Shown: positions 14,016 to 61,979 of the stretch, in pieces
Position numbering within the stretch: position 1 is the first letter of the stretch
Layout: each line of letters starts with the position of its first letter
Origin: Nemertoderma westbladi
Taxonomy: Eukaryota; Animalia; Xenacoelomorpha
Length of the DNA stretch: 64,000 bases
Direction: 5' to 3'
NCBI GenBank assembly: GCA_032718475.1
Contig: JAUCBJ010007417.1
Location: forward strand, 1 to 64,000
Notes under the pieces: model-generated
Seen by the model: the letters and a program-made list of their open reading frames with translations, nothing else
Database searches by the model: none
Told to the model about the DNA's origin: nothing
Made by a program: the position numbers and the translations under genes

Positions 14016-14059
14016 GTTAATATGTTTAATATATATAAATAAATAAATTATGGAATTAG

Positions 14060-17000
14060 GTCCCATTGTCTCCTCCACTACTTCTCTAATTCTATCCTCT
14101 ATCTCCCATTGTGTCCCCCACTACTTCTCTAACTCTATCCTGTATGTACCATTGTGTCCCCCACTACTTATCTAACTCTATCCTCTATCTCCCATTGTGT
14201 CCCCCACTACTTCTCTAACTCTATCCTCTATGTACCATTGTGTCCCCCACTACTTATCTAAATCTATCCTCTATCTCCCATTGTGTCCCCCACTACATAT
14301 CTAACTATCCTCTATCTCCCATTGTGCCCCCCACTACTTCTCTAACTCTATCCTCTATGTACCATTGTGTCCCCCACTACTTCTCTAACTCTATCCTCTA
14401 TGTACCATTGTGTCCCCCACTACTTCTCTAACTCTATCCTCTATCTCGCATTGTGTCCCCCACTACATATCTAACTCTATCCTCTATCTCCCATTGTGTC
14501 CCCCACTACTTCTCTAAATCTATTCTCTATCTCCCATTGTGTCCCCCACTACTTCTCTAACTCTATCCTCTATCTCCCATTGTGTCCCCCATTACTTATC
14601 TAACTCTATCCTCTATGTACCATTGTGTCCCCCACTACTTCTCTAACTCTATCCTCTATGTACCATTGTGCCCCCCACTACTTATCTAACTCTATCCTCT
14701 ATGTACCATTGTGTCCCCCACTACTTATCTAACTCTATCCTCTATCTCCCATTGTGTCCCCCACTACTTCTCTAATTCTATCCTCTATCTCCCATTGTGT
14801 CCCCCACTACTTCTCTAACTCTATCCTCTATGTACCATTGTGTCCCCCACTACTTATCTAAATCTATCCTCTATCTCCCATTGTGTCCCCCACTACATAT
14901 CTAACTATCCTCTATCTCCCATTGTGCCCCCCACTACTTCTCTAACTCTATCCTCTATGTACCATTGTGTCCCCCACTACTTCTCTAACTCTATCCTCTA
15001 TCTCCCATTGTGTCCCCCACTACATATTTAACTCTATCCTCTATATCCCATTGTGTCCCCCACTACTTCTCTAACTCTATCCTCTATGTACCATTGTGTC
15101 CCCCACTACTTATCTAAATCTATTCTCTATCTCCCATTGTGCCCCCCACTACTTCTCTAACTCTATCCTCTATGTACCATTGTGTCCCCCACTACTTCTC
15201 TAACTCTATCCTCTATCTCGCATTGTGTCCCCCACTACATATCTAACTCTATCCTCTATCTCCCATTGTGTCCCCCACTACTTCTCTAACTCTATCCTCT
15301 ATGTACCATTGTGTCCCCCACTACTTTTCTAACTCTATCCTCTATCTCCCATTCTGTCCCCCACTACTTATCTAACTCTATCCTCTATCTCCCATTGTGT
15401 ACCCCACTACTTCTCTATCTCTATCCTCTATGTACCATTGTGTCCCCCACTACTTTTCTAACTCTATCCTCTATATCCCATTGTGTCCCCCACTACTTCT
15501 CTAACTCTATCCTCTATCTCCCATTGTGTCCCCCATTACTTATCTAACTCTATCCTCTATGTACCATTGTGTCCCCCACTACTTCTCTAACTCTATCCTC
15601 TATGTACCATTGTGTCCACCACTACTTATCTAACTCTATCCTCTATCTCCCATTGTGTCCCACACTACTTATCTAACTCTATCCTCTATCTCCAATTGTG
15701 TCCCCCACTACTTCTCTAACTCTATCCTCTATGTACCATTGTGTCCCCCACTACTTATCTAACTCTATCCTCTATCTCCCATTGTGTCCCCCACTACTTC
15801 TCTAATTCTATCCTCTATCTCCCATTGTGTCCCCCACTACTTCTCTAACTCTATCCTCTATGTACCATTGTGTCCCCCACTACTTATCTAACTCTATCCT
15901 CTATCTCCCATTGTGTCCCCCACTACTTCTCTAACTCTATCCTCTATGTACCATTGTGTCCCACACTACTTCTCTAACTCTATCCTCTATGTACCATTGT
16001 GTCCCCCACTACTTCTCTAACTCTATCCTCTATGTACCATTGTGTCCCACACTACTTATATAACTCTATCCTCTATGTACCATTTTGTCCCCCACTACTT
16101 CTCTAACTCTATCCTCTATGTACCATTGTGTCCCCCACTACTTCTCTAACTCTATCCTCTATCTCCCATTGTGTCCCACACTACTTATCTAACTCTATCC
16201 TCTATCTCCAATTGTGTCCCCCACTACTTCTCTAACTCTATCCTCTAAGTACCATTGTGTCCCCCACTACTTATCTAACTCTATCCTCTATCTCCCATTG
16301 TGTCCCCCACTACTTCTCTAACTATATCCTCTATCTCCAATTGTGTCCCCCACTACTTATCTAACTCTATCCTCTATCTCCAATTGTTTCCCCCACTATA
16401 TACTTCTCTAACTCTATCCTCTATGTACCATTGTGTCCCCCACTACTTATCTTACTCTATCCTCTATCTCCCATTGTGTCCCACACTACTTATCTAACTC
16501 TATCCTCTATCTCCAATTGTGTCCCCCACTACTTCTCTAACTCTATCCTCTATGTACCATTGTGTCCCCCACTACTTCTCTAACTCTATCCTCTATCTCC
16601 CATTGCGTCCCCCACTACTTCTCTAACTCTATCCTCTATCTCCCATTGTGTCCCCCACTACTTCTCTAACTCTATCCTCTATATCCCATTGTGTCCCCCA
16701 CTACTTCTCTAACTCTATCCTCTATCTCCCATTGTGTCCCCCACTACTTCTCTAACTCTATCCTCTATCTCCCATTGTGTCCCCCACTACTTCTCTAACT
16801 CTATCCTCTATCTCCCATTGCGTCCCCCACTACTTCTCTAACTCTATCCTCTATGTACCATTGTGTCCCCCACTACTTCTCTAACTCTATCCTCTATCTC
16901 CCATTGTGTCCCCCCTACTTCTCTAACTCTATCCTCCATGTACCATTGTGTCCCCACTACTTTTCTAACTCTATCCTCTATCTCCCATTGTGTCCCCCAC

Positions 17001-20000
17001 TACTTCTCTAACTCTATCCTCTATGTACCATTGTGTCCCCCACTACTTCTCTAACTCTATCCTCTATCTCCCATTGTGTCCCCCACTACTTATCTAACTC
17101 TATCCTCTATGTACCATTGTGCCCCCACTACTTCTCTAACTCTATCCTCAATCTCCCATTGTGTCCCCCACTACTTCTCTAACTCTATCCTCTATCTCCC
17201 ATTGTGTCCCCCACTACTTCTCTAACTCCATCCTCTATCTCCCATTGTGTCCCCCACTACTTCTCTAATTCTATCCTCTATGTACCATTGTGTCCCCCAC
17301 TACTTCTCTAACTCTATCCTCTATCTCCCATTGTGTCCCCCACTTCTTATCTAACTCTATCCTCTATCTCCCATTGTGTCCCCCACTACTTCTCTAACTC
17401 TATCCTCTATGTACCATTGTGTCCCCCACTACTTATCTAAATCTATCCTCTATCTCCCATTGTGTCCCCCACTACTTCTCTAACTATATCCTCTATCTCC
17501 CATTGTGTCCCCCACTACTTCTCGAAATCTATCCCCCCGCTCCCATTACGTCCCCCACTACTTCTCTAACTCTATCCTCTATGTACCATTGTGTCCCCCA
17601 CTACTTATCTAAATCTATCCTCTATCTCCCATTGTGTCCCCCACTACTTCTCTAACTCTATCCTCTATCTCCCATTGTGTCCCCCACTACTTCTCGAAAT
17701 CTATCCCCCCGCTCTAATTACGTCCCCCACTACTTCTCTAACTCTATCCTCTATGTACCATTGTGTCCCCCAATACTTATCTAAATCTATCCTCTATCTC
17801 CCATTGTGTCCCCCACTACTTCTCTAACTCTATCCTCTATCTCCCATTGTGTCCCCCACTACTTCTCAAAATCTATCCCCCCGCTCCCATTACGTCCCCC
17901 ACTACTTCTCTAACTCTATCCTCTATGTACCATTGTGTCCCCCACTACTTATCTAAATCTATCCTCTATCTCCCATTGTGTCCCCCACTACTTCTCGAAA
18001 TCTATCCCCCCGCTCCCATTACGTCCCCCACTACTTCTCTAACTCTATCCTCTATGTACCATTGTGTCCCTCACTACTTATCTAAATCTATCCTCTATCT
18101 CCCATTGCGTCCCCCACTACTTCTCTAACTCTATCCTCTATGTACCATTGTGTCCCCCACTACTTCTCTAACTCTATCCTCTATGTACCATTGTGTCCCC
18201 CACTACTTCTCGAAATCTATCCCCTCGCTCCCATTACGTCCCCCACTACTTCTCTAACTCTATCCTCTATGTACCATTGTGTCCCCCACTACTTATCTAA
18301 CTCTATCCTCTATCTCCCATTGCGTCCCCCACTACTTATCTAACTCTATCCTCTATGTACCATTGTGTCCCCCACTACTTATCTAAATCTATCCTCTATC
18401 TCCCATTGTGTCCCCCACTACTTCTCTAACTATATCCTCTATCTCCCATTGTGTCCCCCACTACTTCTCGAAATCTATCCCCCCGCTCCCATTACGTCCC
18501 CCACTACTTCTCTAACTCTATCCTCTATGTACCATTGTGTCCCCCACTACTTATCTAAATCTATCCTCTATCTCCCATTGTGTCCCCCACTACTTCTCTA
18601 ACTCTATCCTCTATCTCCCATTGTGTCCCCCACTACTTCTCGAAATCTATCCCACCGCTCCCATTACGTCCCCCACTACTCCTCTAACTCTATCCTCTAT
18701 GTACCATTGTGTCCCCCACTACTTATCTAAATCTATCCTCTATCTCCCATTGTGTCCCCCACTACTTCTCGAAATCTATCCCCCCGCTCCTTTTACGTCC
18801 CCCACTACTTCTCTAACTCTATCCTCTATGTACCATTGTGTCCCCCACTACTTATCTAAATCTATCCTCTATCTCCCATTGCGTCCCCCACTACTTCTCT
18901 AACTCTATCCTCTATGTACCATTGTGTCCCCCACTACTTCTCTAACTCTATCCTCTATCTCCAATTGCGTCCCCCACTACTTCTCTAACTCTATCCTCTA
19001 TGTACCATTGTGTCCCCCACTACTTCTCTAACTCTATCCTCTATCTCCCATTGCGTCCCCCACTACTTCTCTAACTCTATCCTCTATGTACCATTGTGTC
19101 CCCCACTACTTCTCTAACTCTATCCTCTATCTCCAATTGCGTCCCCCACTACTTCTCTAACTCTATCCTCTATGTACCATTGTGTCCCCCACTACTTCTC
19201 TAACTCTATCCTCTATCTCCCATTGCGTCCCCCACTACTTCTCTAACTCTATCCTCTATGTACCATTGTGTCCCCAACTACTTCTCTAACTCTATCCTCT
19301 ATGTACCATTGTGTCCCCCACTACTTATCTAACTCTATCCTCTATGTACCATTGTGTCCCCCACTACTTATCTAACTCTATCCTCTATGTACCATTGTGT
19401 CTCCCACTACTTATCTAACTCTATCCTCTATGTACCATTGTGTCCCCCACTACTTATCTAACTCTATCCTCTATGTACCATTGTGTCTCCCACTACTTCT
19501 CTAACTCTATCCTCTATCTCCCATTGTGTCCCCCACTACTTCTCTAACTCTATCCTCTATGTACCATTGTGTCTCCCACTACTTATCTAACTCTATATCT
19601 CCCATTGTGTCCCCCACTACTTACCTAACTCTATCCTCTATGTACCATTGTGTCCCCCACTACTTCTCTAACTCTATCCTCTATCTCCCATTGTGTCCCC
19701 CACTACTTCTCTAACTCTATCCTCTATCTCCCATTGTGTCCCCCACTACTTCTCGAAATCTATCCCCCCACTCCCATTACATCCCCCACTACTTCTCTAA
19801 CTCTATCCTCTATGTACCATTGTGCCCCCCACTACTTCTCTAACTCTATCCTCTATCTCCCATTGTGTCCCCCACTACTTCTCTAACTCTATCCTCTATC
19901 TCCCATTGTGTCCCACACTACTTATCTAAATCTATCCTCTATCTCCCATTGTGTCCCCCACTACTTCTCTAACTCTATCCTCTATCTCCCATTGTGTCCC

Positions 20001-23000
20001 CCACTACTTATCTAAATCTATCCTCTATCTCCCATTGTGTCCCCCACTACTTCTCGAAATCTATCCCCCCGCTCCCATTACGTCCCCCACTACTTCTCTA
20101 CCTCTATCCTCTATGTACCATTGTGTCCCCCACTACTTATCTAACTCTATCCTCTATGTACCATTGTGTCCCCCACTACTTCTCGAAATCTATCCCCCCG
20201 CTCCCATTACGTCCCCCACTACTTCTCTACCTCTATCCTCTATGTACCATTGTGTCCCCCACTACTTATCTAACTCTATCCTCTATGTACCATTGTGTCT
20301 CCCACTACTTATCTAACTCTATATCTCCCATTGTGTCCCCCACTACTTCTCTAACTCCATCCTCTATCTCCCATTGTGTCCCCCACTACTTCTCTAATTC
20401 TATCCTCTATGTACCATTGTGTCCCCCACTACTTCTCTAACTCTATCCTCTATCTCCCATTGTGTCCCCCACTTCTTATCTAACTCTATCCTCTATCTCC
20501 CATTGTGTCCCCCACTACTTCTCTAACTCTATCCTCTATGTACCATTGTGTCCCCCACTACTTATCTAAATCTATCCTCTATCTCCCATTGTGTCCCCCA
20601 CTACTTCTCTAACTATATCCTCTATCTCCCATTGTGTCCCCCACTACTTCTCGAAATCTATCCCCCCGCTCCCATTACGTCCCCCACTACTTCTCTAACT
20701 CTATCCTCTATGTACCATTGTGTCCCCCACTACTTATCTAAATCTATCCTCTATCTCCCATTGTGTCCCCCACTACTTCTCTAACTCTATCCTCTATCTC
20801 CCATTGTGTCCCCCACTACTTCTCGAAATCTATCCCCCCGCTCTAATTACGTCCCCCACTACTTCTCTAACTCTATCCTCTATGTACCATTGTGTCCCCC
20901 AATACTTATCTAAATCTATCCTCTATCTCCCATTGTGTCCCCCACTACTTCTCTAACTCTATCCTCTATCTCCCATTGTGTCCCCCACTACTTCTCAAAA
21001 TCTATCCCCCCGCTCCCATTACGTCCCCCACTACTTCTCTAACTCTATCCTCTATGTACCATTGTGTCCCCCACTACTTATCTAAATCTATCCTCTATCT
21101 CCCATTGTGTCCCCCACTACTTCTCGAAATCTATCCTCTATCTCCCATTGCGTCCCCCACTACTTCTCTAACTCTATCCTCTATGTACCATTGTGTCCCC
21201 CACTACTTCTCTAACTCTATCCTCTATGTACCATTGTGTCCCCCACTACTTCTCTAACTCTATCCTCTATGTACCATTGTGTCCCCCACTACTTCTCTAA
21301 CTCTATCCTCTATCTCCCATTGTGTCCCCCACTACTTATCTAAATCTATCCCCTCGCTCCCATTACGTCCCCCACTACTTCTCTAATTCTATCCTCTAAG
21401 TACCATTGTGTCCCCCACTACTTCTCTAACTCTATCCTCTATGTACCATTGTGTCCCCCACTACTTATCTAACTCTATCCTCTATCTCCCATTGCGTCCC
21501 CCACTACTTATCTAAATCTATCCCCTCGCTCCCATTACGTCCCCCACTACTTCTCTAATTCTATCCTCTAAGTACCATTGTGTCCCCCACTACTTCTCTA
21601 ACTCTATCCTCTATGTACCATTGTGTCCCCCACTACTTCTCTAACTCTATCCTCTATGTACCATTGTGTCCCCCACTACTTCTCTAACTCTATCCTCTAT
21701 GTACCATTGTGTCCCCCACTACTTATCTAACTCTATCCTCTATCTCCCATTGCGTCCCCCACTACTTATCTAACTCTATCCTCTATGTACCATTGTGTCC
21801 CCCACTACTTATCTAAATCTATCCTCTATCTCCCATTGTGTCCCCCACTACTTCTCTAACTATATCCTCTATCTCCCATTGTGTCCCCCACTACTTCTCG
21901 AAATCTATCCCCCCGCTCCCATTACGTCCCCCACTACTTCTCTAACTCTATCCTCTATGTACCATTGTGTCCCCCACTACTTATCTAAATCTATCCTCTA
22001 TCTCCCATTGTGTCCCCCACTACTTCTCTAACTCTATCCTCTATCTCCCATTGTGTCCCCCACTACTTCTCGAAATCTATCCCACCGCTCCCATTACGTC
22101 CCCCACTACTTCTCTAACTCTATCCTCTATGTACCATTGTGTCCCCCACTACTTATCTAAATCTATCCTCTATCTCCCATTGTGTCCCCCACTACTTCTC
22201 GAAATCTATCCCCCCGCTCCTTTTACGTCCCCCACTACTTCTCTAACTCTATCCTCTATGTACCATTGTGTCCCCCACTACTTATCTAAATCTATCCTCT
22301 ATCTCCCTTTGCGTCCCCCACTACTTCTCTAACTCTATCCTCTATGTACCATTGTGTCCCCCACTACTTCTCTAACTCTATCCTCTATCTCCAATTGCGT
22401 CCCCCACTACTTCTCTAACTCTATCCTCTATGTACCATTGTGTCCCCCACTACTTATCTAACTCTATCCTCTATCTCCCATTGCGTCCCCCACTACTTCT
22501 CTAACTCTATCCTCTATGTACCATTGTGTCCCCCACTACTTCTCTAACTCTATCCTCTATGTACCATTGTGTCCCCCACTACTTATCTAACTCTATCCTC
22601 TATGTACCATTGTGTCCCCCACTACTTATCTAACTCTATCCTCTATGTACCATTGTGTCTCCCACTACTTATCTAACTCTATATCTCCCATTGCGTCCCC
22701 CACTACTTCTCTAACTCTATCCTCTATGTACCATTGTGTCCCCCACTACTTCTCTAACTCTATCCTCTATGTACCATTGTGTCCCCCACTACTTATCTAA
22801 CTCTATCCTCTATGTACCATTGTGTCCCCCACTACTTCTCTAACTCTATCCTCTATGTACCATTGTGTCCCCCACTACTTCTCTAACTCTATCCTCTATC
22901 TCCAATTGCGTCCCCCACTACTTCTCTAACTCTATCCTCTATGTACCATTGTGTCCCCCACTACTTCTCTAACTCTATCCTCTATCTCCCATTGTGTCCC

Positions 23001-26000
23001 CCACTACTTCTCTAACTCTATCCTCTATGTACCATTGTGTCCCCCACTACTTATCTAAATCTATCCTCTATCTCCCATTGTGTCCCCCACTACTTCTCTA
23101 ACTATATCCTCTATCTCCCATTGTGTCCCCCACTACTTCTCGAAATCTATCCCCCCGCTCCCATTACGTCCCCCACTACTTCTCTAACTCTATCCTCTAT
23201 GTACCATTGTGTCCCCCACTACTTATCTAAATCTATCCTCTATCTCCCATTGTGTCCCCCACTACTTCTCTAACTCTATCCTCTATCTCCCATTGTGTCC
23301 CCCACTACTTCTCGAAATCTATCCCACCGCTCCCATTACGTCCCCCACTACTCCTCTAACTCTATCCTCTATGTACCATTGTGTCCCCCACTACTTATCT
23401 AAATCTATCCTCTATCTCCCATTGTGTCCCCCACTACTTCTCGAAATCTATCCCCCCGCTCCTTTTACGTCCCCCACTACTTCTCTAACTCTATCCTCTA
23501 TGTACCATTGTGTCCCCCACTACTTATCTAAATCTATCCTCTATCTCCCATTGCGTCCCCCACTACTTCTCTAACTCTATCCTCTATGTACCATTGTGTC
23601 CCCCACTACTTCTCTAACTCTATCCTCTATCTCCAATTGCGTCCCCCACTACTTCTCTAACTCTATCCTCTATGTACCATTGTGTCCCCCACTACTTCTC
23701 TAACTCTATCCTCTATCTCCCATTGCGTCCCCCACTACTTCTCTAACTCTATCCTCTATGTACCATTGTGTCCCCCACTACTTCTCTAACTCTATCCTCT
23801 ATCTCCAATTGCGTCCCCCACTACTTCTCTAACTCTATCCTCTATGTACCATTGTGTCCCCCACTACTTCTCTAACTCTATCCTCTATCTCCCATTGCGT
23901 CCCCCACTACTTCTCTAACTCTATCCTCTATGTACCATTGTGTCCCCCACTACTTCTCTAACTCTATCCTCTATGTACCATTGTGTCCCCCACTACTTAT
24001 CTAACTCTATCCTCTATGTACCATTGTGTCCCCCACTACTTATCTAACTCTATCCTCTATGTACCATTGTGTCTCCCACTACTTATCTAACTCTATCCTC
24101 TATGTACCATTGTGTCCCCCACTACTTATCTAACTCTATCCTCTATGTACCATTGTGTCTCCCACTACTTCTCTAACTCTATCCTCTATCTCCCATTGTG
24201 TCCCCCACTACTTCTCTAACTCTATCCTCTATGTACCATTGTGTCTCCCACTACTTATCTAACTCTATATCTCCCATTGTGTCCCCCACTACTTACCTAA
24301 CTCTATCCTCTATGTACCATTGTGTCCCCCACTACTTCTCTAACTCTATCCTCTATCTCCCATTGTGTCCCCCACTACTTCTCTAACTCTATCCTCTATC
24401 TCCCATTGTGTCCCCCACTACTTCTCGAAATCTATCCCCCCACTCCCATTACATCCCCCACTACTTCTCTAACTCTATCCTCTATGTACCATTGTGCCCC
24501 CCACTACTTCTCTAACTCTATCCTCTATCTCCCATTGTGTCCCCCACTACTTCTCTAACTCTATCCTCTATCTCCCATTGTGTCCCCCACTACTTCTCGA
24601 AATCTATCCCCCCGCTCCCATTACGTCCCCCACTACTTCTCTAACTCTATCCTCTATGTACCATTGTGTCCCCCACTACTTATCTAACTCTATCCTCTAT
24701 CTCCCATTGTGTCCCCCACTACTTCTCGAAATCTATCCCCCCGCTCCCATTACGTCCCCCACTACTTCTCTACCTCTATCCTCTATGTACCATTGTGTCC
24801 CCCACTACTTATCTAACTCTATCCTCTATGTACCATTGTGTCTCCCACTACTTATCTAACTCTATATCTCCCATTGTGTCCCCCACTACTTCTCTAACTC
24901 TATCCTCTATCTCCCATTGTGTCCCCCACTACTTCTCGAAATCTATCCCCCCGCTCCCATTACGTCCCCCACTACTTCTCTAACTCTATCCTCTATGTAC
25001 CATTGTGTCCCCCACTACTTATCTAACTCTATCCTCTATCTCCCATTGTGTCCCCCACTACTTCTCTAACTCTATCCTCTATCTCCCATTGTGTCCCCCA
25101 CTACTTCTCGAAATCTATCCCCCCGCTCCCATTACGTCCCCCACTACTTCTCTAACTCTATCCTCTATGTACCATTGTGTCCCCCACTACTTCTCTAAAT
25201 CTATCCTCTATCTCCCATTGTGTCCCCCACTACTTCTCGAAATCTATCCCCCCGCTCCCATTACGTCCCCCACTACTTCTCTAACTCTATCCTCTATGTA
25301 CCATTGTGTCCCCCACTACTTATCTAAATCTATCCTCTATCTCCCATTGTGTCCCCCACTACTTCTCTAACTCTATCCTCTATGTACCATTGTGTCCCCC
25401 ACTACTTCTCTAACTCTATCCTCTATGTACCATTGTGTCCCCCACTACTTCTCTAACTCTATCCTCTATGTCCCATTGTGTCCCCCACTACTTCTCTAAC
25501 TCTATCCTCTATCTCCCATTGCGTCCCCCACTACTTATCTAACTCTATCCTCTATGTACCATTGTGTCCCCCACTACTTATCTAAATCTATCCTCTATCT
25601 CCCATTGTGTCCCCCACTACTTCTCTAACTATATCCTCTATCTCCCATTGTGTCCCCCACTACTTCTCGAAATCTATCCCCCCGCTCCCATTACGTCCCC
25701 CACTACTTCTCTAACTCTATCCTCTATGTACCATTGTGTCCCCCACTACTTATCTAAATCTATCCTCTATCTCCCATTGTGTCCCCCACTACTTCTCTAA
25801 CTCTATCCTCTATCTCCCATTGTGTCCCCCACTACTTCTCGAAATCTATCCCACCGCTCCCATTACGTCCCCCACTACTTCTCTAACTCTATCCTCTATG
25901 TACCATTGTGTCCCCCACTACTTATCTAAATCTATCCTCTATCTCCCATTGTGTCCCCCACTACTTCTCGAAATCTATCCCCCCGCTCCTTTTACGTCCC

Positions 26001-30353: not shown

Positions 30354-30400
30354 GCACCAATATTAATTGGTCTATATTATTGAGTAATTATATCTAATAT

Positions 30401-31050
30401 TGTTCGAACGTTCACCAATATTAATTGGTCTATTATATTGGGTAATTCTATTTTACATTGTTTGAACGTAAAGTCTCCGCCCAGAAAGTCCACCCGCGCG
30501 CAGGTGATAATTAGGGGTCAACTCCATATTGACCCCACAGCAGGCTATAAATAGGGGCGCATCGGGTCTAAAACTTCAAGAGTTTTCACTCTGCCTCAGG
30601 CATAACTGTTGAGCCCAGCTCCTCAGTATAGCAGAGGTCCCTGGCCTAGAAGTCAGCTCTGTTCCGAGTTGGGGCCGTCTTTGTTGCTGGATCGGGCCTG
30701 AGAAAGGCTTTGCGGTCGCCAGTAACTTAAGACGATTCCGCCGTCGGACGGCTGTACTACCTTAGCCTAAGCCAACTCTGGTCCAAAGTTGGGGCCTTCT
30801 TTGTTGCTGGATCCGGCCTGCGAAAGGCTTTGCGGTTGCCTGTAACGTAAGACGGTTCCACCGTTGGTCTGAGCTCATTGGCGAGAAAAGCCCGGAGCGG
30901 TGCGCTTGTGTGCTCGCTATTGCCTACCAGGCAAAAGTGGCAGCGTCTCCACCGGCTCGGCTCTCCTGCCCACGGTAGTGCTGGTGCACTATCCCCAGGC
31001 TATATGTTTATTTGTGGTTCGCCCAAATAAACCTTTATGGTCTGAGAACA
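30401..31050 (+). mobile_element. Probable solo LTR or LTR-like insertion
   Basis: TGTTC...GAACA termini, TATAAATA near 30546, AATAAA near 31026, internal ~120-bp duplication, GC-richer than its flanks; TSD ambiguous (tat/atatt). Confidence 0.45.
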
Positions 31051-32114: not shown

Positions 32115-32191
32115 GTGTGAATTTGTATAAAGTAACAGCTAAGTGAATTCTTATGAGTTGTGATAGTAACATGTCAACATGTCGATTTTTC

Positions 32192-35100: not shown

Positions 35101-36196
35101 TACAGGTCAGGCAGGGTGCGGTAAGACCACCCAGGTACCCCAGTACACCCGTTATTGTTGCAGGTCAGACAGGGTGCGGTAAGACCACCCAGGTACTCCA
35201 GTACATCCGTTATTGTTGCAGGTCAGATAGGGTGCGGTAAGATCACCCAGGTACCCCCCAGTACATCCGTTATTGTTGCGGGTCAGGCAGGGTGCGGTAA
35301 GACCACCCAGGTACCCCCCAGTACATCCGTTATTGTTACAGGTCAGGCAGGCTGCGATAAGACCACCCAGGTACCCCAGTACACCCGTTATTGTTGCAGG
35401 TCAGACAGGGTCGGTAAGACCACCCAAGTACCCCTTAGTACACCGTTATTGTTGCAGGTCAGACAGGGTGCGGTAAGACCACCCAAGTACTCCTAGTACA
35501 TCCGTTTTTGTTGCAGGTCAGACAGGGTGCGGTAAGACCACCCAAATACCCCTTAGTACATCCGTTATTGTTGCAGGTCAGGCAGGGTGCGGTAAGACCA
35601 CCCAGGTACCCCCCAGTACATTCGTTATTGTTACAGGTCAGACAGGGTGCGGTAAGACCACCCAGGTACCACACCCGTTATTGTTGCAGGTCAGACAGGG
35701 TGCGGTAAGACCACCCAGGTACCCCAGTACATCCGTTATTGTTGCAGGTCAGAAAGGGTGCGGTAAGACCACCCAAGTACCTCTTACTACATCCGTTATT
35801 GTTGCAGGTCAAGCAGGGTGCGGTAAGACCACCCAGATACCCCCCAGTACATCCGTTATTGTTGCAGGTCAGACAGGGTGCGGTAAGACCACCCAGGTAC
35901 CCCCCAGTACATCCGTTTTTGTTGCAGGTCAGACAGGGTGCGGTAAGACCACCCAAGTACCCCTTAGTACATCCGTTATTGTTGCAGGTCAGACAGGGTG
36001 CGGTAAGATCACCCAAGTACCCCTTAGTACATCCGTTATTGTTGCAGGTCAGACAGGGTTCGGTAAGACCACCCAGATACCCCCCAGTACATCCGTTATT
36101 GTTGCAGGTCAGACAGGGTGCGGTAAGACCACCCAGGTACCCCAGTACATCCGTTATTGTTGCAGGTCAGACAGGGTGCGGTAAGACCACCCAAGT
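32192..36196 (+). repeat. ~58-62-bp satellite, left arm (~67 copies), copy of the intron 2 acceptor + Walker A coding start of exon 3
   Basis: Unit tacatccgttattgttgcag|gtcagacagggtgcggtaagaccacccaggtacccccag matches 44393-44450. Confidence 0.95.
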
Positions 36197-39100: not shown

Positions 39101-40890
39101 AAATTAATCTGGGTGCATCAAAGCAATAAACAAAAGTTAAAGATGGTTACAGGACAAGTTGTATCTAGACAAGTTTTTTGAAAATTATAAAAGAAACATT
39201 TTTTAGTCAAATTTTGTTTGTTTTTCTTTTAATTCCTTTAATTCTTTAAATTTCTTTTAATTGGGGGCTGCCGCCGCCAAACCCCCGCTTCTTTTGTTGG
39301 GAGCTACCGCCCCCAAACCCCCGCTTCTTTTGTTGGGAGCTACCGCCCCCAAACCCCCGCTTATTTTCTTGGGGGCTGCCGCCCCCAAACCCCCGCTTCC
39401 TTTGTTGGGAGCTACCGCCCCCAAACCCCCGCTTATTTTCTTGGGGGCTGCCGCCCCCAAACCCCCGCTTCTTTTCTTGGGGGTTATCGCCCCCAGACCG
39501 CGGCATTTCCCTGAGTGCCCGTGGTGAAAGACTTAAGACCACTTTAAAATAATTAATTCATGTTTGTATCATTAGATAATAAATTGACTAAGCCTAAAGT
39601 AGGAGCTGTATTGAATGTTAACCAATTTAATATATAAATTACTACAATATTATATAATTCAACAAAATCCTATTAAAAATATTGCAAGTAACCAGGAAAT
39701 TTAATATGTAGTGTGTATAATATCTATATACAGTAGTATGTATAGTAGTAATACGTATACCAATATGTAATGCTGAACACAGAATACAGGTCGACGCATG
39801 TCGATTTTACCCTGGAGAGGTATAATTTTGATTGCAACAATAATATTAATCCCCATCTGCTACAATTTGAAGAATACTATTACATAATAATACCTATAAT
39901 TAAAACAATTAATTATTATAATTCTATAGTTAATAAAAACAGTATATCATTCCGGGGATGGAATTTATAGGTCATCTAATATAATTAATTGTTTAAAGAT
40001 TAGTAAACAATACGATGTAATTGCATTGATAAAACCCATAAATAAAACTTGGATATAAAATGTAAAATCGGGATGCAAAAGATCACTTTCTGAGCTACGA
40101 ATGGAAAATTGGATACAAATTATCTGGATACAAGCGGTCCGTTTACCTTACAAAATGAAAAATACGAATGTGCGAAGTTAAGAACAGTCGGGGGGGAAGT
40201 GTCCGCGGGGGGGAAGTGTCTGGGGGGGAAGTGTCCGGGGGGGAAGTGTCCTACTTGAGCGGGGGGGAACTGTCCGGGGGGGAAGTGTCCGGGGGGGAAG
40301 TGTCCGAACACCGAGCAGACATAAAAATAAATCCACGCACTAACAACATAAACATTCCACACACAAAAAACAGATACGGGCACGAAAGTATTACAGTAAA
40401 TCTTATTAATTTATGGAACACATTACCGGTTCACGTGACAAGTTCAAAATCACTCCAAATTTTTAAAAATCTATTGAAAAAAATATTCCATGTAAAATTT
40501 GAGCGGAGCGAGGTGACATAATTAGTAATATATAATAAAATGAACACGAACCGCAAAATAAACACAAAAGTCAAAATATAAAAAACCTGCACCCCCAACA
40601 AATGAATGTTTAATAACAAACTATCTTTAACAATTACCTACCTATTGATTACGTTTATTGTGCTGTGTATAGAGTACTACCGTTTAGTTAGGAATTATTA
40701 GATACAGTAGCTTATATGTATATTTAGTTAGAAACATGCATCATAGATACATGCCGCCCTGTGACACTTATTCAGTCAATTATCAGTAGGTACCTCGTGT
40801 ACAAACTGCCTCATGTATGTTTTGTTGCATAATGAGTTTTACTGAATAAAAGAGTTGAATGAATGAATGAATGAATGAATGAATGAATGA
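36197..40890 (+). mobile_element. Decayed L2/Crack-group LINE inserted inside a satellite unit
   Basis: APE motifs (INSRSL, VTETWL, GDFNI, SDHD) and RT motifs (NYRPVA, FLDLSKAF, GVPQG, YADD) broken by frameshifts/stops near 36610, 37575 and 38738; (TGAA)n tail at 40856-40890; interrupted unit resumes with duplicated aag(t). Confidence 0.92.
38967..40311. mobile_element. Non-autonomous foldback/Mutator-like element nested in the LINE
   Basis: 9-bp TSD cgagcagac at 38958-38966 and 40312-40320; inverted arrays of 15-bp ggacacttccccccc; internal 36-bp GC-rich tandem at 39261-39500; removing it restores the LINE frame LNRAD-IKINP. Confidence 0.88.
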
Positions 40891-43800
40891 AAGTACCCCT
40901 TAGTACATCCGTTATTGTTGCAGGTCAGACAGGGTGCGGTAAGACCACCCAAGTACCCCTTAGTACATCCGTTATTGTTGCAGGTCAGACAGGGTGCGGT
41001 AAGACCACCCAAGTACCCCTTAGTACATCCGTTATTGTTGCAGGTCAGACAGGGTGCGGTAAGACCACCCAGGTACCCCAGTATACCTGTTATTGTTGCA
41101 GGTCAGACAAGGTGTGGTAAGACCACCCAGGTACCCCCCAGGACATCCGATATTGTTGCAGGTCAGACAGGGTGTGGTAAGACCACCCAGGTACCCCCCA
41201 GTACATCCGTTATTGTTGCAGGTCAGACAGGGTGCGGTAATATCACCCAAGTACCCCTTAGTACATCCGTTATTGTTGCAGGTCAGACAGGGTGCGGTAA
41301 GACCACCCAGGTACCCCATTACACCTGTTATTGTTGCAGGTCAGACAAGGTGCGGTAAGACCACCCAGGTACCCCCCAGTACATCCGATATTGTTGCAGG
41401 TCAGACAGGGTGCGGTAAGACCACCCAAGTACCCCTTAGTACATCCGTTATTGTTGCAGGTCAGACAGGGTGTGGTAAGAAGACCACCCAAGTACCCCTT
41501 AGTACATCCGTTATTGTTGCAGGTCAGACAGGGTGCGGTAAGACCACCCAGGTACCCCTTAGTACATCCGTTATTGTTGCAGGTCAGGCAGGGTGCGGTA
41601 AGACCACCCAGGTACCCCCCAGTACATCCGATATTGTTGCAGGTCAGACAGGGTGCGGTAAGACCACCCAAGTACCCCTTAGTACATCCGTTATTGTTGC
41701 AGGTCAGACAGGGTGCGGTAAGACCACCCAGGTACCCCAGTACATCCGTTATTGTTGCAGGTCAGACAGGGTGTGGTAAGAAGACCACTCAAGTACCCCT
41801 TAGTACATCCGTTATTGTTGCAGGTCAGACAGGGTGCGGTAAGACCACCCAGGTACCCCCCAGTACATCCGATATTGTTGCAGGTCAGACAGGGTGCGGT
41901 AAGACCACCCAAGTACCCCTTAGTACATCCGTTATTGTTGCAGGTCAGACAGGGTGCGGTAAGACCACCCAGGTACCCCCCCAGTACATCCGATATTGTT
42001 GCAGGTCAGACAGGGTGCGGTAAGACCACCCAAGTACCCCTTAGTACATCCGTTATTGTTGCAGGTCAGACAGGGTGCGGTAAGACCACCCAGGTACCCC
42101 CCAGTACATCCGATATTGTTGCAGGTCAGACAGGGTGCGGTAAGACCACCCAGGTACCCCCCAGTACATCCGTTTTTGTTGCAGGTCAGACAGGGTGCGG
42201 TAAGACCACCCAGGTACCCCAGTACATCCGTTATTGTTGCAGGTCAGACAGGGTGTGGTAAGAAGACCACCCAAGTACCCCTTAGTACATCCGTTATTGT
42301 TGCAGGTCAGACAGGGTGCGGTAAGACCACCCAGGTACCCCCCCAGTACATTCGTTTTTGTTGCAGGTCAGACAGGGTGCGGTAAGACCACCCAAGTACC
42401 CCTTAGTACATCCGTTATTGTTGCAGGTCAGACAGGGTGCGGTAAGACCACCCAGGTACCCCCCAGTACATCCGTTTTTGTTGCAGGTCAGACAGGGTGC
42501 GGTAAGACCACCCAAGTACCCCTTAGTACATCCGTTATTGTTGCAGGTCAGACAGGGTGCGGTAAGACCACCCAAGTACCCCTTAGTACATCCGTTATTG
42601 TTGCAGGTCAGACAGGGTGCGGTAAGACCACCCAGGTACCCCCCAGTACATCCGTTTTTGTTGCAGGTCAGACAGGGTGCGGTAAGACCACCCAGGTACC
42701 CCTTAGTACATCCGTTATTGTTGCAGGTCAGACAGGGTGCGGTAAGACCACCCAGGTACCCCCCAGTACATCCGATATTGTTGCAGGTCAGACAGGGTGC
42801 GGTAAGACCACCCAGGTACCCCCCAGTACATCCGTTTTTGTTGCAGGTCAGACAGGGTGCGGTAAGACCACCCAGGTACCCCAGTACATCCGTTATTGTT
42901 GCAGGTCAGACAGGGTGTGGTAAGAAGACCACCCAAGTACCCCTTAGTACATCCGTTATTGTTGCAGGTCAGACAGGGTGCGGTAAGACCACCCAGGTAC
43001 CCCCCCAGTACATTCGTTTTTGTTGCAGGTCAGACAGGGTGCGGTAAGACCACCCAAGTACCCCTTAGTACATCCGTTATTGTTGCAGGTCAGACAGGGT
43101 GCGGTAAGACCACCCAGGTACCCCCCAGTACATCCGTTTTTGTTGCAGGTCAGACAGGGTGCGGTAAGACCACCCAAGTACCCCTTAGTACATCCGTTAT
43201 TGTTGCAGGTCAGACAGGGTGCGGTAAGACCACCCAAGTACCCCTTAGTACATCCGTTATTGTTGCAGGTCAGACAGGGTGCGGTAAGACCACCCAGGTA
43301 CCCCCCAGTACATCCGTTTTTGTTGCAGGTCAGACAGGGTGCGGTAAGACCACCCAAGTACCCCTTAGTACATCCGTTATTGTTGCAGGTCAGACAGGGT
43401 GCGGTAAGACCACCCAAGTACCCCTTAGTACATCCGTTATTGTTGCAGGTCAGACAGGGTGCGGTAAGTCCACCCAGGTACCCCTTAGTACATCCGTTAT
43501 TGTTGCAGGTCAGACAGGGTGCGGTAAGACCACCCAAGTACCCCTTAGTACATCCGTTATTGTTGCAGGTCAGACAGGGTGCGGTAAGACCACCCAGGTA
43601 CCCCCCAGTACATCCGTTTTTGTTGCAGGTCAGACAGGGTGCGGTAAGACCACCCAAGTACCCCTTAGTACATCCGTTATTGTTGCAGGTCAGACAGGGT
43701 GCGGTAAGACCACCCAAGTACCCCTTAGTACATCCGTTATTGTTGCAGGTCAGACAGGGTGCGGTAAGACCACCCAGGTACCCCCCAGTACATCCGTTTT

Positions 43801-44412
43801 TGTTGCAGGTCAGACAGGGTGCGGTAAGACCACCCAAGTTCCCCTTAGTACATCCGTTATTGTTGCAGGTCAGACAGGGTGCGGTAAGACCACCCAAGTA
43901 CCCCTTAGTACATCCGTTATTGTTGCAGGTCAGACAGGGTGCGGTAAGAAGACCACCCAAGTACCCCTTAGTACATCCGTTATTGTTGCAGGTCAGACAG
44001 GGTGCGGTAAGACCACCCAGGTACCCCCAGTACATCCGATATTGTTGCAGGTCAGACAGGGTGCGGTAAGACCACCCAAGTACCCCTTAGTACATCCGTT
44101 ATTGTTGCAGGTCAGGCAGGGTGCGGTAAGACCACCCAGGTACCCCCCAGTACATCCGATATTGTTGCAGGTCAGACAGGGTGCGGTAAGACCACCCAAG
44201 TACCCCTCAGTACATCCGTTATTGTTGCAGGTCAGGCAGGGTGCGGTAAGACCACCCAGGTACCCCCAGTACATCCGTTATTGTTGCAGGTCAGACAGGG
44301 TGCGGTAAGAAGACCACCCAAGTACCCCTTAGTACATCCGTTATTGTTGCAGGTCAGACAGGGTGCGGTAAGACCACCCAAGTACCCCTTAGTACATCCG
44401 TTATTGTTGCAG
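40891..44412 (+). repeat. 60-bp satellite, right arm (~59 copies), contiguous with exon 3
   Basis: Same unit as 32192-36196, more homogeneous; the last copy is the real acceptor/exon 3 start. Confidence 0.95.
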
Positions 44413-44867
44413 GTCAGACAGGGTGCGGTAAGACCACCCAGGTACCCCAGTATATTCTCTCTCGGATGATCAGCCAAGGCAGGGCGGCTGACTGCAACAT
44501 CGTGGTCACTCAACCACGACGGATTTCCGCGATTTCTGTTGCGGAACGCGTCGCAGCTGAACGAGGCGAGGACATCGCTGATTCTGTCGGGTACTCGGTA
44601 CGTTTCGAGTCCTACCTCCCACGGCCTCACGGCTCCGTAATGTTCTGCACCGTGGGCGTCCTCCTCAGGAAGCTTGAGTCCGGTCTCCGAGGAGTATCCC
44701 ACGTAATTGTGGACGAGATCCACGAACGGGATTTGAACTCGGATTTTCTCCTCATTCTCCTTAAAGACATGGTCGCCAAGTATCCTGCTATGAGAGTGAT
44801 TCTCATGAGCGCGACCATCGATACCTCCATGTTTAGCGATTACTTTGGCAATTGTCCAGTCATAGAG
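44413..44867 (+). CDS. DHX9: DHX9 coding exon 3 (motifs I-III)
   Basis: [45 protein letters not shown]; acceptor TTGCAG|GT, donor GAG|GTTTGT; phase 1 to 0. Confidence 0.95.
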
Positions 44868-45071
44868 GTTTGTTTTTATATTATATCGTTCTTCCGTTCG
44901 TACTTTTAATACAAATATTGCATTCCATTTGGGAGACGTGATAATTTTGTTTTTTTTTTACAATAAAACTTTACTTGAAAATTTAAATACTCTGTCTGTA
45001 GTATATATAACAACATGTTTATTGTGTTGAACTTTATACGTCGGTTGGGAATACTTTATGTGACTACCGGT

Positions 45072-46157
45072 TAGAGTTGTAACTGAGACCTGTTTTTCTT
45101 AATCCCGGTGTACCAGAGACCTACCCAGAGAATTATTTTGAAAAATACCGGAGACCAGAGCCGGAGATCAGAGACTTTGTTTATTTTTGTACTTACAATT
45201 TGATTACTCCCCTATAGCACAAACAGGTACATACGGCCTTAGAACTATTTTTCTATGGTTGAATTACAGTAAAGTAAATCCAACCCATTTCAACCTCTAC
45301 TTACTTACCCATTGTAAGAAAATAAGCGCACGTACAGTTTTGGGGGCTTAATTAATATTAATTTGGTTATTTGTTTATTAATTCGTTCTTATTTTGTTAC
45401 TACTACTACTACTACTACTTATGTTATCGTCTATTATCTATTATCTATTATCTTATGATGTTATCATCTATTTTGTTATTGTTAATAATATGTTACATAA
45501 ATTTGTTTTGCGCCATAGGTACCGGTACTTTGTTAATTAAACTAAAGGCACTTATTTTACAATTGTTCAAATCATATACATTTCAATGTACTATAAACTT
45601 AGTCATTTACGAATACTTAGTGCACCCAGGTATAGTGCTCTACTCGCCCCATTTACAAGCCTCGTTACGCTCGTTCTCTCCATTTGGTCGTCATATTATC
45701 TATCCAATAACAAATTGAATGGAGATCAGCCCTTTCTTTCACTTTTAAACTTTGAGTGCTCAAATTAAGCGCCCGTATCCTTAAAGAAGAACCATCTTTA
45801 GGTGCTAATTTAACTTAAAATTAAACGCACCTTAAATTAATTAAATAGAAGATTATCGGTACATTTATTAGAAATATAAATAGTGTAAAAGTAAATATAT
45901 ATAATTGTGTTGAATTGGTATATGAAAAATAGTTAAAAATGAAAGAAATAATTGTAAAAAATTTGTGAAAAATAATCATCATTTCACATTTTGTGTTGTA
46001 CAGGATCTATTTTTAAATATCTATTTCTGTCAAATCACTTATCTCTGGGTAAAATGCCTGTTTCAATACCCGGGAACCAGAGAACTATCCGGAGACCGAA
46101 AAATAGCCCGGAGAATCCAGAGACAGAGATCAATGACAAGTCTCTGTTTCAACTCTA
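45072..46157. mobile_element. hAT-like non-autonomous element
   Basis: TIR tagagttg(t/a)aac.gagac ... gtctctgtttcaactcta; 8-bp TSD ctaccggt at 45064-45071 and 46158-46165. Confidence 0.85.
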
Positions 46158-46171
46158 CTACCGGTATATAC

Positions 46172-46810
46172 TAGAGTTGAAACAGAGACCTGTTTTTCTT
46201 AATCCCGGTGAACCAGAGACCTACCCGGAGAATTATTTTGAAAAATACTGTAGACCACAGATCAGAGACTTTGCTTATTTTTCTACAATAATAATTGATT
46301 ATAGCACAAACAAGTACCGGTACGTAATTATATTACGTATTATATAGAGTTGAAACAGAGACCTGTCACTGATCAAAAACAGGTCTCTGTTTCAACTCTA
46401 GTATTATATTATATAATTACTTAAATATTGTAACTATTTTCTATACTCCAACACATTCGACCCTTAAAACCCAATAACAATCGAAAAAATAATCGCTGAG
46501 TACAGTTTAGGTTATTGTAACATTAATTTGTTTTCAGTTTTCCTACATTTAGGTAATTTGTCTATAATAAAAAAAGGCATTTACCTTCCAATGTTTCTAT
46601 AAACTTGGTCATTTACTACTCCGCTCGCCACCTTTACAAGCCTCATTGCGCTCGTATCACCATTTGTTCTCCGTAATATATAACCTACGCCTACAACAAG
46701 GTGAAAAGAACTCAACCTTTACTTTTCAACTTTGTGCTCAAATTAAGCACACTTATCCTTAAAATAAGAACCCCTGTAGGTGCTAAATTATCTTAATTAA
46801 ATCGGGTTAA
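46172..46810. mobile_element. Second, right-truncated copy of the same hAT-like family
   Basis: 46172-46320 matches 45072-45230 and 46590-46800 matches ~45585-45820; no right TIR before the 51-bp array begins. Confidence 0.7.
46345..46400. mobile_element. 56-bp minimal hAT-like MITE (two TIRs only)
   Basis: 22-bp perfect TIR tagagttgaaacagagacctgt + 12-bp spacer; 8-bp TSD gtattata at 46337-46344 and 46401-46408. Confidence 0.85.
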
Positions 46811-46814
46811 ATCA

Positions 46815-49800
46815 GGTCGAACCCACCCGGTTACGGTTTACTATTTCGTTGTGTTTTAGGTGTCCGGTCGGACCCACCCGGTTACGGTTTACTATTTCGT
46901 TGTGTTCTAGGTGTCCGGTCGAACCCACCCGGTTACGGTTTACTATTTCGTTGTGATCTAGGTGTCCGGTCGAACCCACACGGTTACGGTTTACTATTTC
47001 GTTGTGTTCTAGGTGTCCGGTCGAACCCACCCGGTTACGGTTTACTATTTCGTTGTGTTCTAGGTGTCCGGTCGAACCCACCCGGTTACGGTTTACTATT
47101 TCGTTGTGTTCTAGGTGTCCGGTCGAACCCACACGGTTACGGTTTACTATTTCGTTGTGTTCTAGGTGTCCGGTCGAACCCACCCGGTTACGGTTTACTA
47201 TTTCGTTGTGTTCTAGGTGTCCGGTCGAACCCACCCGGGTACGGTTTACTATTTCGTTGTGTTCTAGGTGTCCGGTCGAACCCACCCGGTTACGGTTTAC
47301 TATTTCGTTGTGTTCTAGGTGTCCGGTCGAACCCACCCGGTTACGGTTTACTATTTCGTTGTGTTCTAGGTGTCCGGTCGAACCCACCCGGGTACGGTTT
47401 ACTATTTCGTTGTGTTCTAGGTGTCCGGTCGTACCCACCCGGTTACGGTTTACTATTTCGTTGTGATCTAGGTGTCCGGTCGAACCCACCCGGTTACGGT
47501 TTACTATTTCGTTGTGTTCTAGGTGTCCGGTCGAACCCACCCGGGTACGGTTTACTATTTCGTTGTGCTCTAGGTGTCCGGTCGAACCCACCCGGTTACG
47601 GTTTACTATTTCGTTGTGTTCTAGGTGTCCGGTCGAACCCACCCGGTTACGGTTTACTATTTCGTTGTGTTCTAGGTGTCCGGTCGAACCCACCCGGTTA
47701 CGGTTTACTATTTCGTTGTGTTCTAGGTGTCCGGTCGAACCCACCCGGTTACGGTTTACTATTTCGTTGTGTTCTAGGTGTCCGGTCGGACCCACCCGGT
47801 TACGGTTTACTATTTCGTTGTGTTCTAGGTGTCCGGTCGAACCCACCCGGTTACGGTTTACTATTTCGTTGTGTTCTAGGTGTCCGGTCGAACCCACCCG
47901 GTTACGGTTTACTATTTCGTTGTGTTCTAGGTGTCCGGTCGAACCCACCCGGTTACGGTTTACTATTTCGTTGTGTTCTAGGTATCCGGTCGGACCCACC
48001 CGGTTACGGTTTACTATTTCGTTGTGTTCTAGGTGTCCGGTCGAACCCACCCGGTTACGGTTTACTATTTCGTTGTGTTCTAGGTGTCCGGTCGAACCCA
48101 CCCGGTTACGGTTTACTATTTCGTTGTGTTGTAGGTGTCCGGTCGAACCCACCCGGTTACGGTTTACTATTTCGTTGTGTTCTAGGTGTCCGGTCGGACC
48201 CACCCGGTTACGGTTTACTATTTCGTTGTGTTCTAGGTGTCCGGTCGAACCCACCCGGTTACGGTTTACTATTTCGTTGTGTTCTAGGTGTCCGGTCGGA
48301 CCCACCCGGTTACGGTTTACTATTTCGTTGTGTTCTAGGTGTCCGGTCGAACCCACCCGGTTACGGTTTACTATTTCGTTGTGTTCTAGGTGTCCGGTCG
48401 AACCCACACGGTTACGGTTTACTATTTCGTTGTGTTCTAGGTGTCCGGTCGAACCCACCCGGTTACGGTTTACTATTTCGTTGTGTTCTAGGTGTCCGGT
48501 CGAACCCACCCGGTTACGGTTTACTATTTCGTTGTGTTCTAGGTGTCCGGTCGAACCCACCCGGGTACGGTTTACTATTTCGTTAGGTGTCCGGTCGAAC
48601 CCACCCGGTTACGGTTTACTATTTCGTTGTGTTCTAGGTGTCCGGTCGGACCCACCCGGTTACGGTTTACTATTTCGTTGTGTTCTAGGTGTCCGGTCGA
48701 ACCCACCCGGGTACGGTTTACTATTTCGTTAGGTGTCCGGTCGAACCCACCCGGTTACGGTTTACTATTTCGTTGTGTTCTAGGTGTCCGGTCGGACCCA
48801 CCCGGTTACGGTTTACTATTTCGTTGTGTTCTAGGTGTCCGGTCGAACCCACACGGTTACGGTTTACTATTTCGTTGTGTTCTAGGTGTCCGGTCGAACC
48901 CACCCGGTTACGGTTTACTATTTCGTTGTGTTCTAGGTGTCCGGTCGAACCCACCCGGTTACGGTTTACTATTTCGTTGTGTTCTAGGTGTCCGGTCGAA
49001 CCCACCCGGGTACGGTTTACTATTTCGTTAGGTGTCCGGTCGAACCCACCCGGTTACGGTTTACTATTTCGTTGTGTTCTAGGTGTCCGGTCGAACCCAC
49101 CCGGGTACGGTTTACTATTTCGTTGTGTTCTAGGTGTCCGGTCGAACCCACCCGGGTACGGTTTACTATTTCGTTAGGTGTCCGGTCGAACCCACCCGGT
49201 TACGGTTTACTATTTCGTTGTGTTCTAGGTGTCCGGTCGAACCCACCCGGGTACGGTTTACTATTTCGTTGTGTTCTAGGTGTCCGGTCGAACCCACCCG
49301 GGTACGGTTTACTATTTCGTTAGGTGTCCGGTCGAACCCATCCGGTTACGGTTTACTATTTCGTTGTGTTCTAGGTGTCCGGTCGGACCCACCCGGTTAC
49401 GGTTTACTATTTCGTTGTGTTCTAGGTGTCCGGTCAAACCCACCCGGGCACGGTTTACTATTTCGTTGTGTTCTAGGTGTCCGGTCGGACCCACCCGGTT
49501 ACGGTTTACTATTTCGTTGTGTTGTAGGTGTCCGGTCGAACCCACCCGGTTACGGTTTACTATTTCGTTGTGTTCTAGGTGTCCGGTCGAACCCACCCGG
49601 TTACGGTTTACTATTTCGTTGTGTTCTAGGTGTCCGGTCGGACCCACCCGGTTACGGTTTACTATTTCGTTGTGTTGTAGGTGTCCGGTCGAACCCACCC
49701 GGTTACGGTTTACTATTTCGTTGTGTTCTAGGTGTCCGGTCAAACCCACCCGGGCACGGTTTACTATTTCGTTGTGTTCTAGGTGTCCGGTCGGACCCAC

Positions 49801-50043
49801 CCGGTTACGGTTTACTATTTCGTTGTGCTCTAGGTGTCCGGTCGGACCCACACGGTCACGGTTACGGTTTACTATTTCGTTGTGTTCTAGGTGTCCGGTC
49901 GGACCCACCCGGTTACGGTTTACTATTTCGTTGTGTTCTAGGTGTCCGGTCGAACCCACCCGGTTACGGTTTACTATTTCGTTGTGATCTAGGTGTCCGG
50001 TCGAACCCACCCGGTTACGGTTTACTATTTCGTTGTGTTCTAG
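46815..50043 (+). repeat. 51-bp satellite (~64 copies), copy of the intron 3 acceptor + start of exon 4
   Basis: Unit gtgtccggtcgaacccacccggttacggtttactatttcgttgtgttctag; the first 36 nt are identical to exon 4 at 50044-50079; a few 44-bp deletion variants at 48580-49330. Confidence 0.96.
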
Positions 50044-50394
50044 GTGTCCGGTCGAACCCACCCGGTTACGGTTTACTATCTCGAGGATTGCGTGGAACTC
50101 GTCGACTTTAAACCGCCGCCGCCGCGGAAGAAGGGCCGCGGTAACCGTGACGACGACGAAGACGAACCCGATCTGGAAGCCGTCGGAGAGGACGACGAGA
50201 ACCTGAACCTGATCGTGTCTGACGCGTACAAAGCCACGACCAAGTGGGCCGTCACCCACATGTCGGAGAAGGAGTTGAGTTTCGAGTTGATCGAGGCTCT
50301 TCTGCGGCACATCTCGAGTCTCAACCAACCCGGCGCTGTGCTCATCTTCCTTCCCGGGTGGTCCCTCATCCAGGCTCTCCTAAAACACCTCCAG
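50044..50394 (+). CDS. DHX9: DHX9 coding exon 4
   Basis: VSGRTHPVTVYYLEDC...SFELIEALL...PGAVLIFLPGW (motif IV); TAG|GTG acceptor, CAG|GTTTGT donor; phase 0 to 0. Confidence 0.95.
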
Positions 50395-61739: not shown

Positions 61740-61979
61740 AAGAAGATCAGCAGTACAGCAGTGAGTCAGTCACACAGCAGTACCAAGCGTACAGTCTTAC
61801 AGTCCCAGTTGGACAAGTAGGCAATGTCAAAGGTTGTATGTGTGCTGTGTATTTAATAGTTAATAGACACCTTAATAATTTGTCTATGTCGTGGGAACGT
61901 GACCTCTCTGGTAGAGCGGCTCTGTAGACAATTATATATATCATATCATATCATATCATATATGATATGATATGATATA

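Follow-up and report, generated by a model that had tools for sequence, protein, structure and literature searches.

Mirage-like minisatellites at the acceptors of three consecutive DHX9 introns in Nemertoderma westbladi

Acceptor-derived arrays in DHX9 introns 1-3

A 64,000-nucleotide (nt) stretch of the Nemertoderma westbladi genome (assembly GCA_032718475.1, contig JAUCBJ010007417.1, positions 1 to 64,000, forward strand), hereafter the window, contains a DHX9 helicase gene whose introns 1-3 each carry a tandem array of ~380 units of 43 nt, 126 units of 58-60 nt, and 65 units of 51 nt, respectively. The arrays probably represent very large minisatellites of the kind called mirages, which would have arisen by chance duplication across a splice junction and grown as minisatellites under a filter imposed by splicing. 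In total, they occupy 27,045 of the 43,509 bp of DHX9 (62%), in agreement with the initial annotation of this DNA (~27 kb of a 43.5-kb gene). The coordinates of the features are listed in Table 1.

Array 1 was detected by Tandem Repeats Finder (TRF) at 14061-30351 (period 43, 379.9 copies), array 2 at 32192-36193 (period 60, 67.4 copies) and 40891-44448 (period 60, 59.2 copies), and array 3 at 46815-50083 (period 51, 64.7 copies). The two parts of array 2 constitute a single array interrupted by a 4.7-kb long interspersed nuclear element (LINE); because the LINE splits it, array 2 is older than this insertion. The unit lengths of 43 and 51 bp annotated previously were retained, while the ~60 bp given for array 2 was refined to an exon-matching unit of 58 nt, with the 60-nt forms being 58 nt plus two extra bases.

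To relate the arrays to splice sites, a stretch from the middle of each was compared by alignment with every one of the 10 DHX9 junctions, on both strands. The four array tracts scored 45, 174, 194, and 190 against their own acceptors, and the next best junction reached at most 21. The sole junction match of each array is therefore the acceptor of its own intron, which supports the earlier description of three consecutive introns filled with repeats of their own acceptors. Parsing of the units confirmed that, in introns 2 and 3, the array runs through to the real exon start, which forms its last copy, as had also been annotated; array 1 ends 1.4 kb short of the real acceptor. The segment separating them (30352-31732) belongs neither to the array nor to an Rfam family and carries duplicated pieces of 57 and 81 nt; the Rfam search of the window, this segment included, gave no structured-RNA match. 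The spacers before arrays 1, 2, and 3 measure 44, 77, and 1,947 nt, so that array 2 starts 77 nt past donor 2. Within the exon head, the arrays start at +1 (array 1), +5 (array 2), and ~+4 to +7 (array 3), and the start of array 1 coincides exactly with AG|GT. The tally for this one gene is three arrays at five acceptors versus none at five donors.

The DHX9 coding frame is intact: six exons, separated by GT-AG introns, combine to 4,023 nt encoding 1,340 amino acids with a single terminal stop. According to Pfam, the product contains two dsrm domains, DEAD, Helicase_C, HA2_C, and OB_NTP_bind. Homologues of exon 6 share 53-61% identity (best 120 of 752 matches among 7,993 scored candidates), and the named ones among these best 120 are nearly all animal RNA helicase A/DHX9; Branchiostoma DHX9 is 59% identical to that of Nemertoderma westbladi, and the database searched contains no closely related species. 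All real donors read NAG|GT, and their intronic part is loose. There are just five introns in the gene (13179-56687), and breaks within exon 3 in the gene models of a few homologues hint at intron loss in the lineage.

Five other tandem arrays of the window (including those with 52/62-, 41-, 53-, and 36-nt units) were tried as junction-derived and rejected, with scores of at most 22 at every junction. A 52/62-nt satellite lies upstream of DHX9 (4900-8950), is unrelated to every DHX9 junction, and is interleaved with inverted 15-nt arrays (6717-7002 and 10122-10327) resembling the arms of foldback elements. Intron 4 contains twelve 99% copies of an AT-rich 41-nt unit (51051-51544), which are not junction-derived and probably very young. 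Inside the LINE that splits array 2 (36197-40890), a nested element (38974-40306) is bounded by inverted arrays of 15-nt units (38974-39087 and 40189-40306) and includes a 36-nt tandem repeat. The minus strand carries two more LINE-type elements (288-4336 and 58164-61769), both having endonuclease and reverse transcriptase (RT) domains, the first with an unbroken 980-codon frame.

Table 1. Features of the DHX9 locus and its arrays in the window.
Feature	Position	Strand	Description
DHX9 exon 1	13179-14015	+	two double-stranded RNA-binding domains; joined frame, Pfam
Spacer 1	14016-14059	+	unique, 44 nt long, between donor 1 and array 1; ends in AG right before the first exon-head copy
Array 1	14060-30351	+	~380 x 43 nt; unit of ~19 nt exon-2 head and 24 nt intron-1 tail
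Segment between array 1 and real acceptor	30352-31732	.	1.4 kb, unrelated; two-copy repeats of 57 nt and 81 nt
Real intron-1 acceptor and exon-2 head	31733-31778	+	30/35 nt identical to array-1 unit
DHX9 exon 2	31760-32114	+	last 13 nt (32102-32114) resemble array-2 unit tail
Array 2, first part	32192-36196	+	~67 units of 58-64 nt; 66 copies keep acceptor AG
LINE, broken, within array 2	36197-40890	+	endonuclease and RT, (TGAA)n tail, AAGT on both sides
Array 2, second part	40891-44412	+	58 decoys, all CAG|GT, continuous into real exon-3 start
DHX9 exon 3	44413-44867	+	Walker A to motif III; first 40-45 nt are the last array-2 copy
Array 3	46815-50043	+	~64 units of 51 nt (five of 44 nt); 63 decoy TAG|GT acceptors
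DHX9 exon 4	50044-50394	+	first 36-40 nt are the last array-3 copy
DHX9 exon 5	52448-52947	+	acceptor TAG|GC, without amplification
DHX9 exon 6	55163-56687	+	Gly/Arg-rich tail and stop; acceptor CAG|GG, without amplification

Turnover, sequencing support, and splice signals of the arrays

The four array tracts comprise 76, 45, 22, and 16 distinct unit forms. Strings of variants recur within the arrays as repeated blocks, with exact runs of 2,918, 937, 661, and 298 nt at multi-unit offsets, and the first copies of the arrays are truncated or divergent, a pattern of concerted turnover inside clusters. The longest run, an exact internal repeat of 2,918 nt in array 1 at an offset of 3,769, represents a duplication, either recent or spurious; because of it, the length of array 1 is uncertain by ~3.8 kb.

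Four sequencing runs, all available as contigs, were compared over 44300-46930; array 1, exon 2, and exons 5-6 lie outside this interval. Run X1 is a possible source of the assembly, and run X2 comes from another sample of another study. The exon-3 contig has a depth of 29.7 in X1 and 30.5 in X2. The depths of the array-2 bins are 566 and 2,164 in X1 and 502 and 299 in X2, and the edge of array 3 reaches 489 in X1 and 85 in X2; contig depth is not a copy number. Since the unit contigs pile up in an independent sample (X2), arrays 2 and 3 are real and not assembly artefacts. The lower X2 depths at equal exon depth hint at allele length differences, as for mirages, within the limit that contig depth gives no copy number. 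The X5 contigs, placed at 85% likeness, leave most of exon 3 uncovered and are uninformative. The unique part of intron 3 (45090-46410) is full of high-copy dispersed repeats, with contig depths mostly in the thousands versus 30.

Run X3, recorded without an RNA label, is probably RNA. One of its contigs (depth 2.5) fuses the end of exon 3 to the head of exon 4, and X2 continues unbranched across the same donor; DHX9 is therefore spliced. In addition, the array-2 unit is present in X3 (44348-44437) as a closed-loop contig with ~20x the depth of the spliced exon contig. None of the X3 contigs placed on 44300-46930 contains the array-3 unit.

The acceptor AG is kept in 124 array-2 decoys and 63 array-3 decoys and is gone from 371 of the 372 parsed array-1 copies; array 1 has only 4 AG dinucleotides in 16,291 nt. 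Array 2, in an intron of 12.3 kb, has 123 decoys of the form YAG|GT, and array 3, in one of 5.2 kb, has 63. If a decoy were used, the frame would stay open in 2 of 124 cases in array 2 (inserts of 60 and 123 nt) and in 0 of 63 cases in array 3, where every unit contains a stop. The three arrays have fared differently: one has kept the AG together with an in-frame stop, another has kept the AG with frames that are mostly broken, and the third has lost the AG. Selection for in-frame units was considered and is ruled out by the stop in every array-3 unit and by the mere two open decoys of array 2. Selective purging of AG from array 1 is not claimed: both junction AGs are among ~5 differences in 35 nt (P~0.06, estimated by hand), and homogenisation amounts to few events.

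Origin of the arrays and rival explanations

According to the mirage explanation, a short piece across an acceptor would have been duplicated by chance, and this junction-spanning piece of 43-58 nt would then have been repeated head to tail within its own intron. Growth probably proceeded through slippage and unequal exchange, the ordinary turnover of minisatellites, in keeping with the block duplications observed, and the arrays would have collected insertions as growth went on. The upstream copies hold 19-45 nt of exon, so that exon definition would prefer the last copy, which stands before the whole exon; a preference for the last acceptor copy is grounded in established knowledge of splicing. 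Wrong acceptor choices, being mostly frame-breaking, would be removed by nonsense-mediated decay. The units, copy numbers, block-wise duplications, array-splitting insertions, and intact reading frame were seen directly. Because the other arrays of the window are unrelated to junctions, this genome appears to make satellites readily. Most likely, the DHX9 arrays ride as passengers in a genome rich in repeats and have no function of their own. The initial annotation had proposed a systematic process, either a junction-biased duplication mechanism or selection tolerating only duplications that end in the functional copy. Its three separate acceptor-centred amplifications stand, and tolerance of those duplications that end in a working copy fits best; a junction-biased mechanism is neither shown nor excluded.

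Several observations weigh against the mirage explanation as set out here. A simple tail-plus-head duplication should start at the intron tail, and all three arrays start in the exon head. The array-2 unit fits the spliced exon 2-3 junction better than expected. The amplified acceptors are AG|GT in 3 of 3 cases and the unamplified ones in 0 of 2 (AG|GC and AG|GG), a weak association that arises in 1 of 10 arrangements. The read support concerns arrays 2 and 3. The spliced X3 contig ends ~21 nt into the 36-nt shared head and is compatible with any acceptor copy. Moreover, in X3 the 58-nt array-2 unit forms a contig of 88 nt whose depth is 50.8, versus 2.5 for the spliced contig, and array 2 may not always be cleanly removed. 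The 88-nt contig may come from intron 2, either retained or incompletely spliced, or from a different locus; RNA levels cannot be read from contigs.

For intron 2, a possible, though less than likely, scenario is that the intron was born of its own repeat. Following Rogers' model, a 58-nt exonic piece around the AG|GT of the Walker A motif would have been duplicated, the first GT becoming a donor and the last AG an acceptor, with repeat growth continuing. Intron gain by tandem duplication of exonic AGGT (Rogers 1989) is an established mechanism, according to PMC3443670. Of the 11 free positions in the 13-nt tail of the array-2 unit, 8 agree with the end of exon 2, and 9 do so in the ACAG variant, to which 17 of 67 first-part units belong; at least 8 matches occur at 1 of 1,018 other YAG sites of the window and at 1 of 156 T-rich sites. 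Simulation of this match gave P=0.004 per test, or ~0.013 for three arrays. Thirteen nt of exon 2 and 45 nt of exon 3 together account for the whole 58-nt unit with 52/58 identity, while four wrong exon ends gave 48-50, and one of the differences is AAG to CAG, as an acceptor requires. However, the margin over the wrong exon ends is just 2-4 nt, and the 13-nt span was picked post hoc. Intron 2 opens with the donor GTGTGA and the 77-nt unique spacer, followed by a head copy from +5, and not with a head copy first. Arrays 1 and 3 fail the same spliced-junction test (25/43 and 44/51, no better than wrong exon ends).

The loci of relatives were sought in a metagenome scan of 8 of 64 parts, of which the best 80 of 494 matches were taken under a ranking that favours unbroken matches. 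Among these 80 loci, one is a clear DHX9 orthologue, and most others are paralogue-like, with 30-41% identity. The orthologue, on a metagenome contig (L001:62-3511), has a full-length frame of 54% identity that is intronless end to end, and it is a transcript or an intronless gene. The gene-model breaks in 120 homologues, which are weak data, include none at the intron-2 or intron-3 sites and two within exon 3. The birth scenario concerns intron 2 only and is compatible with the mirage explanation. If intron 2 is lineage-specific, it would add a rare example from animals of an intron created by duplication within an exon, and one whose founding repeat can still be read.

The decoys might also correct themselves: splicing to an AG|GT decoy would rebuild a donor (AAG|GTCAGA or GAG|GTGTCC), which would be re-spliced to the last acceptor, i.e., recursive splicing. 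This is rather unlikely as an account of the arrays, and it would explain amplification of AG|GT acceptors only. Consistent with it are the YAG|GT sites of array 2 (123) and array 3 (63), the initial GT of all three amplified exons and of neither of the two others, the rebuilt donor, which looks comparable to the real NAG|GT donors with their loose intronic part, and the occurrence of array-2 sequence in the RNA-like run X3. Five acceptors are, however, too few for the GT association to tell (1 in 10 by arrangement), and array 1 has lost its AGs, therefore no ratchet can work there. Array-3 units are not among the X3 contigs placed on 44300-46930, and no decoy junction read or sawtooth coverage was seen, neither of which contigs can reveal. 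A combined scenario, in which intron 2 was made from 58 exonic bases of the ATP-binding motif and grew to ~126 copies, with AG|GT acceptors free to become satellites as their decoys rebuild donors, is similarly doubtful. If it were true, mirage arrays would be a source of new introns as well as natural multi-step ratchets.

A mechanism aimed at junctions, e.g., repair at the acceptor with reverse-transcribed or partly spliced RNA as a template, is improbable. It could account for the involvement of three neighbouring acceptors in one gene, for the exact start of array 1 at AG|GT, and for the likeness of the array-2 unit to a spliced junction; the window also contains three LINE-type RT frames. 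All array starts fall within 7 nt of head +1, which has a probability of ~0.003 at random, with that interval chosen afterwards. On the other hand, the tails of array 1 and array 3 are intronic and do not resemble complementary DNA, and the units have neither a poly(A) tail nor a target duplication. Since exonic duplications are selected out and purely intronic ones lack an exon match, arrays at junctions would be the ones to catch a reader's attention in any case. That assembly artefacts account for the arrays, wholly or for much of their length, is very improbable: array 1 does contain the 2,918-nt exact repeat and lies outside the interval compared, and no contig spans any array, but the units vary (76, 45, 22, and 16 forms), a LINE carrying a nested element interrupts array 2, and the units of arrays 2 and 3 pile up in an independent sample.

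Comparison with known systems

Array 2 resembles the exonic AGGT duplication of Rogers (PMC3443670) in that its unit, around AG|GT, is identical to the spliced junction in 52 of 58 nt. It differs from that model by the 77-nt spacer after the donor, and arrays 1 and 3 do not fit it. Human variable internal tandem repeats at exon-intron boundaries are small minisatellites in young duplicated primate genes, averaging ~4 copies of 30 nt (PMC2812944). They are boundary minisatellites like the DHX9 arrays, and the human ones lengthen or create introns (PMC2812944), whereas the arrays of DHX9 measure kilobases and sit in a conserved helicase gene. Recursive splice sites are defined by AG|GT in long introns (PMC6110456), and the DHX9 decoys share with them the YAG|GT motif within introns of more than 5 kb. 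The recursive sites described there are single, conserved, and supported by junction reads, in contrast to the 186 near-identical copies in DHX9, which are known from sequence alone. No genome-wide survey of junction arrays, and no case of this size, was found in the open-access literature.

As the class is already known, the surprise is modest, and the value of the arrays lies in their use as test material. The spliceosome must choose one acceptor past 124 and 63 near-identical upstream decoys, which offers a direct test of exon definition, and such arrays will mislead gene predictors and read mappers. Mirages in Adh3 of amphioxus were reportedly described by Canestro et al. (2002), as related in later papers citing that work. 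The name was taken from Adh3, with units of 10-72 bp, and covers tandem repeats over intron-exon borders in amphioxus, including the globins BflGb6 and BflGb9 (PMC3087553); further mirages were found in amphioxus PGBD5 and troponin C (PMC3902484). The initial annotation, which knew of no named element class with this pattern, is corrected by these descriptions. Mirages are spliced normally and show allele length instability; their mechanism is unclear, and they have been proposed as a route of intron gain (PMC3087553). In BflGb6, the 3' end of the intron and the 5' start of the exon are repeated in tandem as 3-6 units of 150-160 bp (PMC3087553). The DHX9 arrays share with the amphioxus mirages units lying over the intron-exon border (in BflGb6, likewise the intron 3' end and exon 5' start), retention of the AG/GT signals in many, though not all, units, and blocks of alike units with divergent edge copies. 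They differ in extent: BflGb6 has 3-6 units, and DHX9 has ~65-380 per array, 27 kb in total, in three consecutive introns. Judged by their sequence, the DHX9 arrays appear to belong to the mirage kind, of which they are an unusually large case.

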